In this document: positions 1-4,753 of the stretch, piece after piece
How positions within the stretch are numbered: the stretch's first letter is position 1
How the letters are laid out: every line of letters starts with the position of its first letter
IMG/VR virus record: IMGVR_UViG_3300034196_000017
Span: 77,422-99,415 of that record
Strand: one strand, 5' to 3'
Length of the DNA stretch: 21,994 nt
Source of the DNA: a virus
Lineage: Duplodnaviria; Heunggongvirae; Uroviricota; Caudoviricetes
Position numbers and translations under genes: made by a program
Notes under the pieces: model-generated
What the model saw: the letters and a program-made list of their open reading frames with translations, nothing else
What the model was told of the DNA's origin: nothing
The model's database searches: none

Positions 1-433
1 AATGTGTGGTATGTTCCATATCAAGACTAAAAGCACCAGTAGCGACAGCATCTGTCTCTTTCTGATTCTCTTCTAGTTGATTGGCATTGTTTTCGTTCTT
101 CTCTCTAACACCGAGGATCGCCATCTCTTCACGCAAGCATGTGTTGTTAAGACTCTCGATTGATTTGACTACAAACTTCGCCATATCAACCTTTTCTTTA
201 GTCATGGTGACAGTATCACCAGCTGAGTTCTTACCAGTCATACTAATGCGGAGAATCTCTAGAGCATCGTCTTGGAGTGCACACAGTTTCATTAGCTGCG
301 TTCTCATCTTAGATCTTGGTGTCTTACCACCTGAGCCCTTTGGACGTCCAGCAGGGTTACCAGAGACGCCTCGTTGAAACCTTGTATCTCTTTCATGTAG
401 TGGGCTTTCACCCATGTCTTCATTTTGGCTCAT
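1..433 (-). CDS. Probable terminase small subunit (DUF5681 motif), partial; runs off window start
   Basis: Manual translation MSQNEDMGESPLHERDTRFQRGVSGNPAGRPKGSGGK...; F-x-x-G-x-SGNP-x-GRPKG motif; RBS AGGGAGG; open to position 1; absent from the ORF track because it has no stop in the window. Confidence 0.75.
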   Translation of the reverse strand, partial: MSQNEDMGESPLHERDTRFQRGVSGNPAGRPKGSGGKTPRSKMRTQLMKLCALQDDALEILRISMTGKNSAGDTVTMTKEKVDMAKFVVKSIESLNNTCLREEMAILGVREKNENNANQLEENQKETDAVATGAFSLDMEHTTH

Positions 434-460
434 AAAGCCTCCCTTTAGTCAAGTTACATA

Positions 461-489
461 ATTCTAACCTTAATTAGTTGATTTGTCAA
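461..489 (-). promoter_or_regulatory. Sigma70 promoter for terminase small subunit
   Basis: TTGACA (489-484), 17-nt spacer, TAGAAT (466-461). Confidence 0.85.
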
Positions 490-508
490 GACCACTAGTG
501 TATAGACG

Positions 509-538
509 AAAAAAAGCCCCGCTTATTAGGCAGGGCTT
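509..538 (-). terminator. Rho-independent terminator ending the tRNA array transcript
   Basis: GCCCTGC-CTAATAA-GCGGGGC followed by 7 T. Confidence 0.9.
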
Positions 539-544
539 CTTATT

Positions 545-720
545 TGCAGTCTAGCTGCTACATCACCTTGTCGGGTAAGATGTTTGTTTCCCGTCTCAGA
601 ACACCTCCGACCGACACTCTATATGCCGACGAAGGTACTGGAATCAAACCAGTCTTGGGAATAAGATTTGATGCTCGGACGGGTTTCGCATCGCGGGTCC
701 GATAGTTTGAGATGACACAT
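545..720 (-). ncRNA. Structured ncRNA with permuted tRNA-like module (T-arm followed by loop-closed acceptor-like stem)
   Basis: ACTGG-TTTGATT-CCAGT (653-637) directly followed by ACCTTCG/CGGAGGT 7-bp stem extended by TCGGCA/TGTCGG; flanking stems TTCCC/GGGAA, GCATCA/TGATGT, TCGGAC/GTCCGA; no credible ORF. Confidence 0.55.
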
Positions 721-726
721 CAAATT

Positions 727-806
727 TGGCAAGGGAAGTAGGATTCGAACCCACGAAATGCCGGGATCAAAACCCGGTGCCTTAGACCTGACTTGGCTAT
801 TCCCTA
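727..806 (-). tRNA. tRNA-Gln(UUG)
   Basis: CCGGG-TT TTG AT-CCCGG anticodon arm, GTGGG-TTCGAAT-CCTAC T-arm, encoded CCA. Confidence 0.93.
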
Positions 807-812
807 ATTGTT

Positions 813-903
813 TGGCGGAAAGAGGAGGAGTCGAACCCCAACCACGTAAGCAGTACCTAGTTTTCAAGACTAGTCGCAGGCCAACCCCGCTGCATCACTT
901 TCC
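813..903 (-). tRNA. tRNA-Ser(UGA)
   Basis: CTAGT-CT TGA AA-ACTAG, long variable arm, G73-CCA. Confidence 0.93.
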
Positions 904-908
904 TTATT

Positions 909-996
909 TGGCAGTACAAGTAGGATTTGAACCTACGGTGCGTTTCCACACAATCCCTTAGCAGGGGATCACAATAAGCCTCTCTGTCATTGTACT
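909..996 (-). tRNA. tRNA-Ser(GCU)
   Basis: ATCCC-CT GCT AA-GGGAT, long variable arm, AGTACAA/TTGTACT acceptor, G73-CCA. Confidence 0.93.
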
Positions 997-1001
997 ATGT
1001 T

Positions 1002-1126
1002 TGGTAGGAATTGGTGGAGTTGAACCACCAGCCTCAAGCCGCTAAACTTGATTTGTACAGTAAATAACCGAACCTCTATTCCGATAAGTTCACCGGTGCA
1101 TATCAGCGTCGAGTCTGTACCTTCCC
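1002..1126 (-). ncRNA. ~125-nt tRNA-like RNA with expanded D domain, 8-nt anticodon-like loop and CCA end
   Basis: GGTGG-TTCAACT-CCACC T-arm, ATTCCT-A-CCA end, TCAAG/CTTGA arm, GTACAG/CTGTAC stem enclosing ~55 nt; 5' GGGAA starts 5 nt after the tRNA-Lys CCA. Confidence 0.65.
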
Positions 1127-1131
1127 ATATT

Positions 1132-1208
1132 TGGTTGGTCGCCCGAGATTCGAACTCGGAACACCCGGATTAAAAGTCCGGTGCTCTAACCAGTTGAGCT
1201 AGCGACCA
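1132..1208 (-). tRNA. tRNA-Lys(UUU)
   Basis: CCGGA-CT TTT AA-TCCGG, canonical cloverleaf, CCA. Confidence 0.95.
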
Positions 1209-1213
1209 TCTTG

Positions 1214-1251
1214 TTTGCAATCAGAAGCCTTACCATTCGGCCAACTAGGAC
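1214..1251 (-). pseudogene. 5' half of tRNA-Cys(GCA), truncated just after the anticodon loop
   Basis: GTCCTAG TT GGCCGAATGGTAAGGC T TCTGA TT GCA AA, then no 3' anticodon strand, T-arm or CCA. Confidence 0.7.
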
Positions 1252-1255
1252 ATAA

Positions 1256-1345
1256 TCAATTTGTGAGTATTGCAATCCATATAGCTAGACTGATCATAAT
1301 AATCAACAAGCTTGCTGGTATTGGTAATTGCATATTTACCGGCAT
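1256..1345 (-). CDS. 29-aa hydrophobic membrane micro-protein MPVNMQLPIPASLLIIMISLAIWIAILTN
   Basis: ATG preceded by AGAGGATGTAAGT; one TM-like segment; fills the spacer between tRNA-Leu and the Cys remnant. Confidence 0.55.
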   Translation of the reverse strand: MPVNMQLPIPASLLIIMISLAIWIAILTN

Positions 1346-1365
1346 ACTTACATCCTCTTTAAATT

Positions 1366-1451
1366 TGGTGCCCACAGGGAGAGTCGAACTCCCACGCCCT
1401 TTCAGGCCACAGGGTCTAAGCCTGCTATGTCTACCGTTCCATCACACGGGC
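1366..1451 (-). tRNA. tRNA-Leu(UAG)
   Basis: GCAGG-CT TAG AC-CCTGT, long variable arm, A73-CCA. Confidence 0.93.
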
Positions 1452-1456
1452 AAAAT

Positions 1457-1530
1457 TGGGGTGAGGCAGCGATTTGAACGCTACGAACCGGGTCACAACC
1501 GGAACTCCCAGCCAGCGGGAACGACCTCAC
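1457..1530 (-). tRNA. tRNA-His(GUG), atypical
   Basis: CCGG-TT GTG AC-CCGG, GTGAGGT/GCCTCAC acceptor, C73-CCA; short T-stem; no encoded G-1. Confidence 0.8.
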
Positions 1531-1644
1531 AGTCACATCTTAAATCGCGTTTGCTGCCGTCATCGACACCTTTCGGCCTTATAATCAGTACGATATCACA
1601 CCATCACTGCACGAATGCTTTCTGGTAATACCTTTTCAACAAAT

Positions 1645-1724
1645 TGGTACGCATGGGTGGATTCGAACCACCGACCTCCCATCCTCTACGGCTTGGGGAC
1701 TCTATCCTCTGAGATTACACACGT
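1645..1724 (-). ncRNA. tRNA-like RNA/pseudo-tRNA with a 12-nt non-anticodon loop
   Basis: ACGTGTG/CATGCGT acceptor, GGTGG-TTCGAAT-CCACC T-arm, AGGTC variable region, CCA; anticodon arm CCCA-AGCCGTAGAGGA-TGGG. Confidence 0.7.
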
Positions 1725-1731
1725 ATTAAAT

Positions 1732-1805
1732 TGGTCACCCCGGAAGGACTTGAACCTTCACCACTTCGTTCCAAACAAAGTACGCTACCATTACGCTACA
1801 GGGAG
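1732..1805 (-). tRNA. tRNA-Pro(UGG)
   Basis: CTTTG-TT TGG AA-CGAAG, T-arm GAAGG-TTCAAGT-CCTTC, CCA. Confidence 0.9.
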
Positions 1806-1852
1806 ATGTTGACATCTTATGCTGATCTTACGGGAAGGAACAGATGTCTTAT

Positions 1853-1939
1853 TGGTGGTCGAAGGATGGAATTGAACCTCTAGCACAAGGCGGGGTGGTT
1901 ACAGCACCCTGACAGTAGCCATCTGTCTCTACAACGACC
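1853..1939 (-). tRNA. tRNA-Tyr(GUA), atypical arms
   Basis: GGGTG-CT GTA AC-CACCC, variable arm, A73-CCA; 5-bp D-stem GACAG/CTGTC; apparent 8-nt acceptor strands. Confidence 0.8.
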
Positions 1940-1943
1940 GTAT

Positions 1944-2047
1944 TGCATTTTGACTGGCGATATTCTCAAGCCTGTCTGAATTAGTACCGGGTATCTAATG
2001 AGCGTCTAGAATTATCACTCGATACCCTGTTGAGCTTGCCAAATGCA
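1944..2047 (-). ncRNA. Candidate ~105-nt structured RNA (nested long hairpin)
   Basis: TGCATTT/AAATGCA (2047-2041 with 1950-1944), GGC/GCC, CTCAA/TTGAG, GGGTATC/GATACCC (2027-2021 with 1995-1989), GAG/CTC. Confidence 0.5.
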
Positions 2048-2050
2048 TTC

Positions 2051-2135
2051 CGAACTATATCCCACTCTATCGCAGGATGTGGGGATTGAACCCACAGCAG
2101 TCACATCTCACATAATGGGGTATAGACCCCGTTCG
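2051..2135 (-). ncRNA. Second permuted tRNA-like module (T-arm + loop-closed 7-bp acceptor-like stem)
   Basis: GTGGG-TTCAATC-CCCAC (2095-2079) directly followed by ATCCTGC-GATAGA-GTGGGAT (2078-2059); closing stem CGAAC/GTTCG; GGGG-TCTATA-CCCC hairpin. Confidence 0.55.
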
Positions 2136-2174
2136 CTATTGTTGACCTGAAGTCGAATAGCCTTTCTATAAATT

Positions 2175-2250
2175 TGGTGCCGCCACCAAGGATCGAACTT
2201 GGGACATCTTGCTTACAAGGCAAGCGCTCTACCATCTGAGCTATAACGGC
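2175..2250 (-). tRNA. tRNA-Thr(UGU)
   Basis: CTTGC-CT TGT AA-GCAAG, canonical cloverleaf, CCA. Confidence 0.95.
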
Positions 2251-2320
2251 AAGTGTGAACATTGACTCCCTGTCGGCGGTTGCCTCAACAGTGTTGCCTG
2301 TCGGAAGTTGCTCACAAATT

Positions 2321-2396
2321 TGGCAGTCTATACGGGAATTGAACCCGTGTCTCCGGCGTGACAGGCCAGTATAATCGACCACTATACTAATAGACT
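2321..2396 (-). tRNA. tRNA-Asp(GUC)
   Basis: CTGGC-CT GTC AC-GCCGG, G73-CCA. Confidence 0.93.
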
Positions 2397-2401
2397 ATAT
2401 T

Positions 2402-2478
2402 TGGTACACCATCAGGGATTCGAACCCTGTTCCTCTGATTGAAAGTCAGAAATCCTAAACCTCGTAGACGAATGGTGT
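2402..2478 (-). tRNA. tRNA-Glu(UUC)
   Basis: TCTGA-CT TTC AA-TCAGA, CCA. Confidence 0.93.
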
Positions 2479-2483
2479 ATTTG

Positions 2484-2618
2484 TTACTTAACCTTACCAG
2501 AGTAAGGATTCTTACCTTTAAGACCTTTGTTCGGATGACATTTCGACTTCTCCTTACTACCAGTAGAACTCTTCTCGATCTTGGCGTGTTCTTTTGTTGC
2601 ATCGTAAAACTTAGTCAT
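2484..2618 (-). CDS. 44-aa Lys-rich micro-protein MTKFYDATKEHAKIEKSSTGSKEKSKCHPNKGLKGKNPYSGKVK
   Basis: ATG preceded by AGAGAGGATGTAAG; fills the Asn-Glu spacer; below the ORF-track length cutoff. Confidence 0.6.
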   Translation of the reverse strand: MTKFYDATKEHAKIEKSSTGSKEKSKCHPNKGLKGKNPYSGKVK

Positions 2619-2649
2619 CTTACATCCTCTCTTTGCTTTACTACGAAAT

Positions 2650-2724
2650 TGGCACCCACGCGAGGGATCGAACCTCGGACCTACTGGTTAACAGCCAGTT
2701 GCTCTGCCGCTGAGCTACACGGGT
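2650..2724 (-). tRNA. tRNA-Asn(GUU)
   Basis: ACTGG-CT GTT AA-CCAGT, G73-CCA. Confidence 0.95.
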
Positions 2725-2747
2725 ATAAATTCTAACAATGTTCAGAC

Positions 2748-2776
2748 ATTTTACAGTAGTCTTGGGTCATTGTCAA
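2748..2776 (-). promoter_or_regulatory. Internal sigma70 promoter within the tRNA array
   Basis: TTGACA (2776-2771), 17 nt, TAAAAT (2753-2748). Confidence 0.75.
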
Positions 2777-2841
2777 CCACAACATTGATCACTATAACGG
2801 GGGATCAGTACGAACCGCTCACTACACGGTCTTAGTCGATT

Positions 2842-2915
2842 TGGTGCGGGTGACAGGTTTCGAACCTGCAATGTCTGGGTGGAAGCCAGAAGTGTTACCG
2901 TTACACTACACACGC
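2842..2915 (-). tRNA. tRNA-Gly(UCC)
   Basis: TCTGG-CT TCC AC-CCAGA, CCA. Confidence 0.93.
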
Positions 2916-2922
2916 ATTTGTT

Positions 2923-2971
2923 TGGTGGTCCGTCAAGCGTTATTACACGCTCTTTGCTTAGCATAAGGACC
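2923..2971 (-). ncRNA. 49-nt CCA-ended mini tRNA-like RNA
   Basis: GGTCC/GGACC-A-CCA acceptor-like stem enclosing AGCGT-GTAATA-ACGCT; spaced like neighbouring tRNAs (6-7 nt spacers). Confidence 0.55.
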
Positions 2972-2977
2972 ATTGTT

Positions 2978-3054
2978 TGGTTGCGAAGGCGAGACTCGAA
3001 CTCGCACATACCGGGATATGAGCCCAGCCTTCTCCCAGTTGAAAGTACCTCGCA
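2978..3054 (-). tRNA. tRNA-Met(CAU), initiator-like (three G-C pairs in anticodon stem)
   Basis: CTGGG-CT CAT AT-CCCGG; U1-A72; CCA. Confidence 0.88.
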
Positions 3055-3065
3055 ATAATTCTATT

Positions 3066-3141
3066 TGGTACACCTGAAGGGATTCGAACCCCTGACCTTG
3101 AGCTTAGAAGGCTCTTGCTCTTCCATCTGAGCTACAGGCGT
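3066..3141 (-). tRNA. tRNA-Arg(UCU)
   Basis: GAGC-CT TCT AA-GCTC, canonical D and T arms, CCA. Confidence 0.93.
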
Positions 3142-3147
3142 ATTACT

Positions 3148-3224
3148 TGGTGGGTCTCACGGGGTATGATCCCGCATCTTACCTGTTATGAGCAGGCAGC
3201 ATTATCCAATTATGCTAAAGACCC
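3148..3224 (-). tRNA. tRNA-Met/Ile2(CAU), elongator type, non-canonical T-loop
   Basis: GCCTG-CT CAT AA-CAGGT; T-loop ATCATAC; GGGTCT/AGACCC acceptor, CCA. Confidence 0.85.
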
Positions 3225-3235
3225 ATTTACTAATT

Positions 3236-3310
3236 TGGCAGGGTTATTGTAGTTACGAACTACTCTTCTCGGCTTGGCCCCGAGCGTGCTGCAAATTACA
3301 CTATCACCCT
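3236..3310 (-). tRNA. Degenerate tRNA-Trp(CCA)-like gene (G32/G33)
   Basis: CTCGG-GG CCA AG-CCGAG; D-loop lacks GG; G73-CCA. Confidence 0.6.
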
Positions 3311-3317
3311 ATTTGTT

Positions 3318-3393
3318 TGGCAGGCCGACTAGGACTTGAACCTAGAACAAAGGATTTGGAATCCTCCGTTTTCCCAATTATAACTACCGACCT
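3318..3393 (-). tRNA. tRNA-Trp(CCA)
   Basis: GAGGA-TT CCA AA-TCCTT, CTAGG-TTCAAGT-CCTAG, G73-CCA. Confidence 0.92.
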
Positions 3394-3421
3394 GTAATTT
3401 GTTGCCAAGATGTGGAAGGCC

Positions 3422-3450
3422 AATATACACTAACATCACATCTCAGTCAA
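3422..3450 (-). promoter_or_regulatory. Sigma70 promoter just upstream of the first tRNA
   Basis: TTGACT, 17 nt, TATATT. Confidence 0.65.
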
Positions 3451-3540
3451 GCAATCCTTTACGTCACCTGATTCCTTAGAGGAGAGGGCTAAGTACCAAT
3501 ACATCTGCAAAGGAAGTGCCTCTTATGTTCTGATTCGCTC

Positions 3541-3569
3541 ATTATACAGACACTTCCGTAAGTTGTCAA
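3541..3569 (-). promoter_or_regulatory. Consensus sigma70 promoter driving the tRNA array
   Basis: Perfect TTGACA-17-TATAAT with upstream A/T-rich UP-like tract. Confidence 0.92.
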
Positions 3570-3599
3570 GACCTTTTTCAAATATTTTAACTAGCGTCA

Positions 3600-3782
3600 C
3601 TAGACATGACTGTACCTCCGCTTGTAGGGTGTATGCCTTTCCGTGATGCTTTCATGTGCATATTCAAACTTGAAGTCCGCATTATACTCGCTATCATCAT
3701 CTGTGTCAAGCGAATTTTCAAGCAGATCATTAATCTCTTGCACTTCCTTCATTACATCCTCATAACTATTGGGTGTTTTCAC
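3600..3782 (-). CDS. Hypothetical acidic protein, 60 aa
   Basis: ORF with AAGGA RBS and an upstream promoter-like sequence. Confidence 0.65.
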   Translation of the reverse strand: MKTPNSYEDVMKEVQEINDLLENSLDTDDDSEYNADFKFEYAHESITERHTPYKRRYSHV

Positions 3783-4563: not shown

Positions 4564-4753
4564 TTTTACGCTCCATCTGAATTCGACTGATCGTTGCAAT
4601 GTCAGCAGTATGACGATCATATTCAGGTTTGTCAGCGTCATTTGTCATTCCGCAGCAGCCACAAACATAACGACCTCTCTTCTTGTACAGCGTTGTCTTT
4701 ACACCTTTCAATCGATGATCACTAAGGCGTCTAAGCATGTGAATACTCAACAT
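4556..4753 (-). CDS. Hypothetical protein, 65 aa, with a CGCC motif (start moved to ATG 4753)
   Basis: GGAG RBS downstream of promoter 4783-4810; the longer track start lies inside the promoter. Confidence 0.6.
   Translation of the reverse strand: MLSIHMLRRLSDHRLKGVKTTLYKKRGRYVCGCCGMTNDADKPEYDRHTADIATISRIQMERKNG

Follow-up and report, generated by a model that had tools for sequence, protein, structure and literature searches.

A conserved, permuted tRNA-like RNA cassette with a sealed acceptor-like arm in the trailer of a phage tRNA operon

Introduction

Small RNAs other than tRNAs are known from phage tRNA operons: the distal stable RNAs of phage T4 (species 1 and 2; rnaC/rnaD) are small, structured non-tRNA RNAs that are co-transcribed after the tRNAs of this lytic phage. 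A different kind of tRNA-related RNA is found in the YrlA-class Y RNAs, in which parts of a cloverleaf follow each other in the order variable region, T-arm, acceptor-like stem-loop and D-arm (Chen et al. 2014, PMC4201824). In Y RNAs, the 5' and 3' ends pair into a terminal helix that carries the conserved motif GNCGAAN0-1G and serves as the Ro60-binding module, and the YrlA RNA of M. smegmatis has a sealed stem of 7 bp, is cut by RNase P and receives a CCA end (PMC4201824). Here we describe cassette E, a tRNA-like element of ~75 nt (positions 588-661, minus strand) behind the last canonical tRNA gene of a phage tRNA operon. The stretch of DNA analysed, referred to as the window, comprises 21,994 nt (positions 77,422 to 99,415 of IMG/VR record IMGVR_UViG_3300034196_000017, Caudoviricetes) and forms the final 22 kb of a phage contig of 99,415 bp, which carries direct terminal repeats and has a completeness rating of 100%. 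A preliminary description of positions 545-720 had proposed one permuted tRNA-mimic RNA of ~175 nt with the order of parts of the tRNA-like domain of YrlA-class Y RNAs, possibly a decoy, scaffold or ligand.

Cassette E folds into a tRNA-like four-way junction

The tRNA operon, on the minus strand, extends from ~3400 to 727 and comprises 16 tRNAs according to ARAGORN, all of which encode CCA. The last canonical one, tRNA-Gln(UUG) (727-806; 52 bits with the Rfam tRNA model), is followed by 222 nt that end with an intrinsic terminator. As described earlier, there is no credible open reading frame (ORF) between tRNA-Gln and the terminator, and the tRNA-like element is located in this distal segment. 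All features below are on the minus strand, with the RNA read towards descending positions.

Cassette E is enclosed by stem P1, in which UUCCC (657-661) pairs with GGGAA (588-592), and which takes the position of the anticodon stem in a permuted cloverleaf. P1 comprises 5-7 bp and has neither a conserved bulge nor the length of a Ro-binding terminal helix. Behind a three-base joiner follows a T-arm-like hairpin, ACUGG-UUUGAUU-CCAGU (637-653), recognizable by direct reading as well as by folding. Its 5-bp stem is closed by a G-C pair, and the 7-nt loop contains U54, U55, U56, G57 and A58. U54, U55, a purine at 57 and A58 are as in a T-loop; position 56 is U in both known copies of cassette E and C in tRNAs generally, including all tRNAs of this operon.

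The T-arm is directly abutted, with no linker at all, by a perfect 7-bp stem, ACCUUCG (636-630)/CGGAGGU (609-603), with a G607-U632 wobble at the position corresponding to 3:70. Instead of ending freely, this stem continues beyond a bulged U610 into a sealing helix (629-624/616-611, 5-7 bp) with a loop at ~623-617; the complete sealed acceptor-like arm, supported by the fold and by the alignment with the homologue, spans 603-636. Neither NCCA nor CCA follows the 7-bp stem (G630). At the position of the D-arm, 3' of the sealed stem, there is just a mini hairpin, GUU-CUGA-GAC (593-602), with 3 bp, a 4-nt loop and no GG. The short GG-containing segment that had been regarded as D-like has to be reassigned, as its GGG (592-590) is part of the paired 3' strand of P1.

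The only homologue (in Pseudomonas phage ventosus, see below) has the same minimum free energy (MFE) fold: P1, T-arm, sealed arm and 3-bp hairpin all form in the two copies folded separately. Folding z-scores were -3.28 for an 83-nt piece of the window and -3.16 for ventosus. To see how readily such a shape arises, we used a descriptor demanding a 5-bp stem, a UU[CU]RANN loop and immediate closure by a perfect 7-bp stem within 3-40 nt. In the whole 99,415-bp genome, searched on both strands, it matched twice (at 653 and 2095), both times on the tRNA strand and within the tRNA operon; in 30 shuffled genomes the mean was 0.07 matches. The combination of T-arm and sealed stem is therefore real and no chance pair of hairpins, and the original observations of a T-arm stacked on a 7-bp acceptor-like stem, of an end closed by an extra helix and loop, and of a circularly permuted order (outer stem, T-arm, sealed acceptor-like stem, in agreement with YrlA; PMC4201824) were all borne out.

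Cassette E is not a tRNA gene, be it canonical or permuted. ARAGORN called neither a tRNA nor a transfer-messenger RNA (tmRNA) between 505 and 726, and the Rfam tRNA model gave no match. There is no anticodon loop, since P1 is open-ended. Because the acceptor-like end is sealed, the element cannot be aminoacylated as it stands, as had been stated before.

A covarying homologue in a distant phage

A permissive blastn search with cassette E alone against 50,697 phage records yielded a single real homologue, in Pseudomonas phage ventosus (94% of the query, 76.8% identity, E-value 9e-6). A covariance model built from the window copy (R1) scored 114 bits on the window and 56.8 bits on ventosus (E-value 5e-14). 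With R1 we found nothing else in 14 related loci or in the 87 loci returned by two loose pattern scans, and no copy in the complete genomes of the phages Bitten and phiPMW and of two further phiPMW-like phages (G002 and G003). The genomes of the window phage and of ventosus have one copy each. Pattern scans also failed to detect a further cassette: a 21-mer had zero matches in IMG/VR, the patterns CGGAGGTGTTCTGNGAC and GGTTTRATTCCNGTACCTTCG gave 15 chance matches in coding DNA and two chance matches, respectively, a gapped stem pattern matched seven times in genome contigs, and a looser one matched at least 118 times in IMG/VR, these last two being the scans that had supplied the 87 loci.

The two phages are only distantly related; about 60 ORF fragments of the window phage genome match in ventosus (tblastn, E-value up to 1e-4). 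In the model-guided alignment all 27 base pairs of cassette E are kept. Five of them differ, each in a compensatory and none in a disruptive manner; three of these five lie in the sealing helix, while P1 and the T-stem have one each. When the pairing partners were slid by one to three columns, 33-57% of the positions remained paired and at most one compensatory pair was seen. P1 reads UUUGCCU/AGGCAAA in ventosus, including one C-G to G-C swap, and the T-arm is ACGGG-UUUAAUU-CCCGU, with a U-A to G-C change. With two sequences only, this covariation is statistically weak. Read from the opposite strand, the conserved G-U pairs would turn into A-C mismatches, and the RNA strand is therefore the tRNA strand.

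Conservation is uneven along the element. The 7-bp stem, including the G607-U632 wobble, and the U610 defect are identical in both phages, and so is UCGGAGGUGUUCUG (610-597), which contains part of the mini hairpin. The sealing helix, on the other hand, is changed at six of its 10-12 paired bases, and the modules flanking cassette E cannot be aligned between the two phages. Judged from this pattern, which points to sequence-specific recognition, the 7-bp stem and its 3' neighbour would be the part that is read.

We also considered an attP-like fragment of a tRNA 3' end and ruled it out, since the pairing partners covary and G-U pairs fix the RNA strand. The phage, with its terminal repeats, has an apparently lytic lifestyle.

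The operon trailer is a chain of modules

The ~175 nt do not constitute one RNA but at least four separate elements, of which the ~75 nt of cassette E are the tRNA-like part. From tRNA-Gln onwards the order is module A, cassette E, hairpin H, a small hairpin and the terminator. Relatives of this trailer were gathered through the small-terminase-like protein encoded next to it and through the motif preceding the terminator, first in IMG/VR and then in metagenomes.

Module A is a 58-nt conserved RNA (667-724) that starts 3 nt behind the CCA of tRNA-Gln, which is the usual spacing between the tRNAs. It has an outer stem of 8 bp (UUUGAUGU/GCAUCAAA), a 15-nt loop on the 5' side with conserved GUCA...UAU, and an inner hairpin of 5-6 bp (CGGAC/GUCCG). 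Five copies are present in four phages, one each in the window, L012 and L007 and two in L003, and RNAalifold yielded 14 consensus pairs, five of them with compensatory changes; blastn against the phage collection gave no match. The outer stems of the preliminary description survive in part, as the 5-bp P1. The longer one does not: when all 222 nt are folded together, the MFE structure pairs CCCGUCCGAGCA with UGUUCUGAGACGGG and suggests a single 175-nt RNA with long outer stems, but we rejected this fold because these bases belong to the inner helix of module A, which covaries in five copies. An outer stem CCUUG/CAAGG in ventosus was rejected likewise, its bases being part of the hairpin of the A-type module there (A', see below), which covaries with phage Bitten.

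Hairpin H (561-582; CAUC-UUACCCGACAAGGU-GAUG), identified by pattern scan and folding, combines an invariant loop (UUACCCGACAAGG) with a stem that covaries among relatives (CAUC/GAUG, CAAUU/AAUUG or CAUUU/AAAUG). It precedes the operon terminator in every phiPMW-like locus found (window, L002-L013, L020), whatever gene comes next. The scan for this pattern recovered nine IMG/VR and four metagenome loci of phiPMW-like phages, and five further metagenome matches were due to chance. Two of the metagenome loci (L016 and L017) look like counterparts of IMG/VR contigs (L005 and L012), leaving L013 and L020 as new ones, both without cassette E. The trailer continues with a small hairpin, GCAG-CUAGA-CUGC (546-558), known from folding, and the intrinsic terminator (509-536), GCCCUGC-CUAAUAA-GCGGGGC followed by U7, which has aligned counterparts in L002 and L003.

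The slot between module A and hairpin H is variable. It is empty in L012 and L007, where module A is joined straight to H. In L003 it is occupied, after A, by another module, D, which phiPMW has between tRNA-Pro and H. Module D (AUGCAG-AGAGUGGUGGACACUCU-UAAACGAUUAGGU...GACCUGCAU; L003:4735-4795 and ~4585-4645 in the phiPMW locus L010) is conserved across these two phages. In L009 and L020 another small tRNA-like module replaces A directly ahead of H. The mini tRNA-like RNA of L020 follows tRNA-Gln and is built from an acceptor-like stem of 7 bp (UUGAGUG/CACUCAA), a short hairpin of the D type and a T-arm (GGUUCGAUGCC); in neither locus does this RNA have an anticodon arm or CCA.

The arrangement in ventosus is similar: an A-type module termed A' (UUUGAGAG...CUCUCAAA, then A-CCA), cassette E, a hairpin H' (CAUACC-GCGCCUU-GGUAUG), a strong promoter and tRNA-Trp. 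In phage Bitten, A' is 95.7% identical to that of ventosus over 92 nt and is joined straight to H', without cassette E. Scanning IMG/VR for the ventosus-type module A' gave one chance match. Since sister phages join A directly to H, cassette E is accessory. It is also rare, its two carriers being distantly related phage lineages that both have it in this slot. Free-standing HNH endonuclease genes lie among the tRNA genes near the A'/E slot in ventosus (L022:2000-2391) and Bitten (L040:905-1292), and it is plausible that such genes drive the cassette-like reshuffling.

Other RNAs of the operon and genomic context

The second descriptor match belongs to a T-arm plus sealed stem at 2051-2135 (T-arm 2095-2079), inside a conserved ~330-nt RNA (~1944-2160 in the window) between tRNA-Thr and a tRNA-Tyr that the programs did not call. 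The T-arm of this RNA covaries in five phages (window, L002, L003, L007 and L012), the sequence of the sealed hairpin differs in each, and no Rfam family matched. R1 did not match the element at 2095; it and cassette E therefore share an architecture, not a sequence. An 8-mer, AUAGAGUG, is common to both sealed stems (617-624 and 2068-2075), where it covers the sealing loop and the beginning of the 3' strand. It does not occur in the relatives and could reflect gene conversion within the phage or chance.

The probable tRNA-Tyr (~1853-1939) has the anticodon GUA, a long variable arm and a CCA end, and was missed by both ARAGORN and the Rfam tRNA model. At ~1543-1600, between a tRNA-like element and tRNA-His, we noticed an RNA of the CAGCAA type that has a closing stem and contains the motif CAGCAAACGCGAU (AUCGUACUG...GCCGAAAGG...CGGCAGCAAACGCGAU). 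This motif is conserved in L002 and L003 and is the only such sequence in the genome.

Downstream of the terminator, a promoter-like sequence (TTGACA-17-TAGAAT, 461-489, minus strand) precedes a gene for a DUF5681, small-terminase-like protein (433-2, minus strand). Upstream of the operon, on the opposite strand, are genes for an Rnl1-type RNA ligase, a PNK/phosphatase, a Prs-like and a Nampt-like protein. The large ORFs of the window were annotated separately; in a Pfam scan, 10 of the 20 ORFs of at least 300 aa turned out to be ordinary replication, nucleotide-metabolism or head genes or to have no family. Distant kin of the window phage are Pseudomonas phage phiPMW and phages of the phiPsa374 type. 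One phiPMW-like contig contains a group I intron (L009:12784-13079; Rfam, 54 bits).

Discussion

The fold of cassette E is solid, yet the element is known in two genomes only. We tentatively favour the explanation that it is a permuted, D-arm-poor cloverleaf of tRNA ancestry which mimics the acceptor/T minihelix and is read by a tRNA-recognising factor. According to this proposal, it would be transcribed within the 3' trailer of the tRNA operon, with the 3' strand of the anticodon stem, a short variable region, the T-arm, the sealed acceptor, a vestigial D element and the 5' strand of the anticodon stem following each other. It is one among several interchangeable small RNA cassettes that are placed between an A-type module and H. 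The coaxial stack of acceptor and T stems, 12 bp in length, could offer a tRNA minihelix face to its reader, with the invariant 7-bp stem plus the next 10 nt as the putative contact surface, and the sealed end would block charging. The RNA might then act in trans, as a stable processed decoy or ligand of a tRNA-binding enzyme or nuclease. We infer the tRNA ancestry from the shape alone, and release as a discrete, stable RNA and the existence of a partner are likewise presumed. A precedent is provided by YrlA, on whose sealed tRNA-like domain tRNA-modifying enzymes and RNase P act (PMC4201824).

Several observations speak against this proposal. There are only two sequences, 15 of 500 shuffles reach the observed covariation values, so that the signal is statistically weak, and the alignment used was itself fitted to the R1 model. 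The sister phages lacking the cassette imply that it cannot be essential. A D-loop GG is missing and U replaces C56 in both copies, which makes recognition by readers of the G19-C56 platform doubtful. No parent tRNA is recognizable in either operon, nor does the Rfam tRNA model match. Furthermore, no candidate for a partner gene is linked to the cassette. The only ORF outside the tRNA region that is exclusively shared by the window phage and ventosus, phrog_36221 (148 aa; G000:4032-4475, equivalent to L169:4032-4475, minus strand, in the window phage genome), is absent from Bitten, phiPMW, G002 and G003, but in both genomes it is located at a great distance from the tRNA region; we dismissed its co-occurrence as evidence for a partner, given the lack of linkage and a comparison of no more than two genomes, which has no weight.

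Possible, if somewhat less probable, is a purely cis-acting role, in which cassette E together with A and H shapes the maturation of the operon's 3' end and has no function as a free RNA. It could provide landmarks for RNase P or RNase E in freeing tRNA-Gln from the terminator-bearing trailer, or block 3' exonucleases. This would agree well with its location, which is always the trailer of a tRNA transcription unit (before H and the terminator in the window, before H' and a strong promoter in ventosus), with the placement of module A at normal inter-tRNA spacing after CCA, as expected of a dummy RNase P substrate, and with the existence of sister phages without the cassette, as fits a modulatory element. 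However, 17 contiguous invariant bases and a wobble stem that stays invariant beside a drifting helix are more than a pure barrier or landmark requires, and A, H and the terminator already give structure in phages devoid of cassette E. We favour a role in trans, but only narrowly.

It is improbable that the cassette is a functionless relic, left after deletions where two tandem copies of a single tRNA gene adjoined, the first copy giving the T-arm and the 3' acceptor strand and the second the 5' acceptor strand. Such a junction automatically yields a T-arm followed by a self-complementary acceptor, dimeric tRNAs can imitate YrlA in searches (Chen et al., PMC4201824), and the tRNA clusters of these phages have been reshuffled around HNH endonuclease genes. 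Against decay argue the compensatory nature of every stem difference between two distant phages and a conservation far better than that of the flanks, to which the lack of a recognizable parent tRNA in either operon may be added. A tandem-tRNA junction may well be the origin of cassette E, though not its present state.

Very improbable is a YrlA-class Y RNA whose tRNA-like module tethers a Ro60/Rsr protein of the phage or its host. Cassette E does share the order of variable region, T-arm and sealed acceptor-like stem with YrlA (PMC4201824), and an RNA of the CAGCAA type exists elsewhere in the operon. The family hallmarks are nevertheless absent. No YrlA, Y RNA or tRNA-clan model of Rfam matched the cassette, either at the gathering score or at E-values up to 10, in searches of window positions 400-3600 and 500-730 (231 nt) and of ventosus 2400-2640. 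Within 500-730 there is neither a GNCGAA motif on the minus strand nor a CAGCAA sequence; a D stem-loop with GG is lacking, and the enclosing stem of 5-7 bp without a conserved bulge does not qualify as a Ro-binding helix. The preliminary description had seen no Ro60/Rsr gene in the window, and we can extend this to the complete genome: six-frame searches of the 99,415 bp and of ventosus detected no TROVE domain, with control genomes scoring, and DUF2828 and two vWA models were negative in the complete window phage genome. Membership of the YrlA family is thus largely refuted.

Least probable is a split minihelix, i.e. a precursor that, like a permuted tmRNA, matures into an anticodon-less two-piece RNA by an RNase P cut at U610|C609, trimming of the 3' piece and CCA addition by the CCA-adding enzyme, with G3:U70 directing alanylation by alanyl-tRNA synthetase and the slot serving as a swap site for tRNA mimics. 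The geometry would suit (exactly 7 bp before the conserved helix defect, U at -1 and 73, and G607-U632 at 3:70, all identical in both phages), and the 7-bp sealed stem of M. smegmatis YrlA is cut and given CCA in this way (PMC4201824), but the seal is a stable helix of 5-6 bp rather than a loop, no CCA is encoded in an operon whose tRNAs all encode it, ARAGORN found no tmRNA, permuted or not, no tmRNA family of Rfam matched on the RNA strand, and the window and ventosus copies have no tag reading frame in common. The sole tmRNA-type Rfam match (7.7 bits) was on the opposite strand of ventosus. A loose resemblance of the 5' part of cassette E to a tmRNA start, with UAAUAA in the terminator loop, was discarded as well: it is conserved neither in ventosus nor in the relatives.

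Annotations of phage tRNA clusters usually distinguish tRNAs and spacers. In this phage group, the spacers contain a set of small RNAs that are conserved and covary; none of them matched an Rfam family in the loci scanned, and a sealed tRNA look-alike without a Ro60 partner is among them. If cassette E binds a tRNA-recognising enzyme or a defence nuclease, it would represent a minimal tRNA decoy independent of protein, and phage tRNA mimicry would reach beyond the pairing of Ro60 with Y RNAs; a split minihelix would amount to a novel type of aminoacyl carrier or would serve as a sink of a host enzyme. The question can be addressed at the bench, as ventosus is cultured and its sister phage Bitten is naturally devoid of the cassette.

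Comparison with known systems

With the distal stable RNAs of the T4 tRNA operon, which we compared by description, cassette E shares its position after the last tRNA and before the terminator; species 1 and 2 are not known to be sealed, permuted cloverleaves. The precursors of permuted two-piece tmRNAs resemble it in the order of T-arm, 3' acceptor strand, intervening segment and 5' acceptor strand as well as in the G-U pair at 3:70, but cassette E, with its ~75 nt, has no CCA, tag reading frame or pseudoknots, and the ARAGORN and Rfam tmRNA searches were negative. From the tRNA-like domain of YrlA (PMC4201824; Wang et al. 2018, bioRxiv 10.1101/312249) it differs by the absence of a GG-containing D-arm, of the Ro60-binding helix and motif and of a covariance-model match, by U in place of C56, by an acceptor-like stem that is sealed by a helix instead of a loop, and by its residence in a phage without a Ro60-like gene. 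What the two have in common is a T-arm-like hairpin followed by a sealed acceptor-like stem, RNA ends at the anticodon-stem side, the inability to be charged as made, and their presence in phages.

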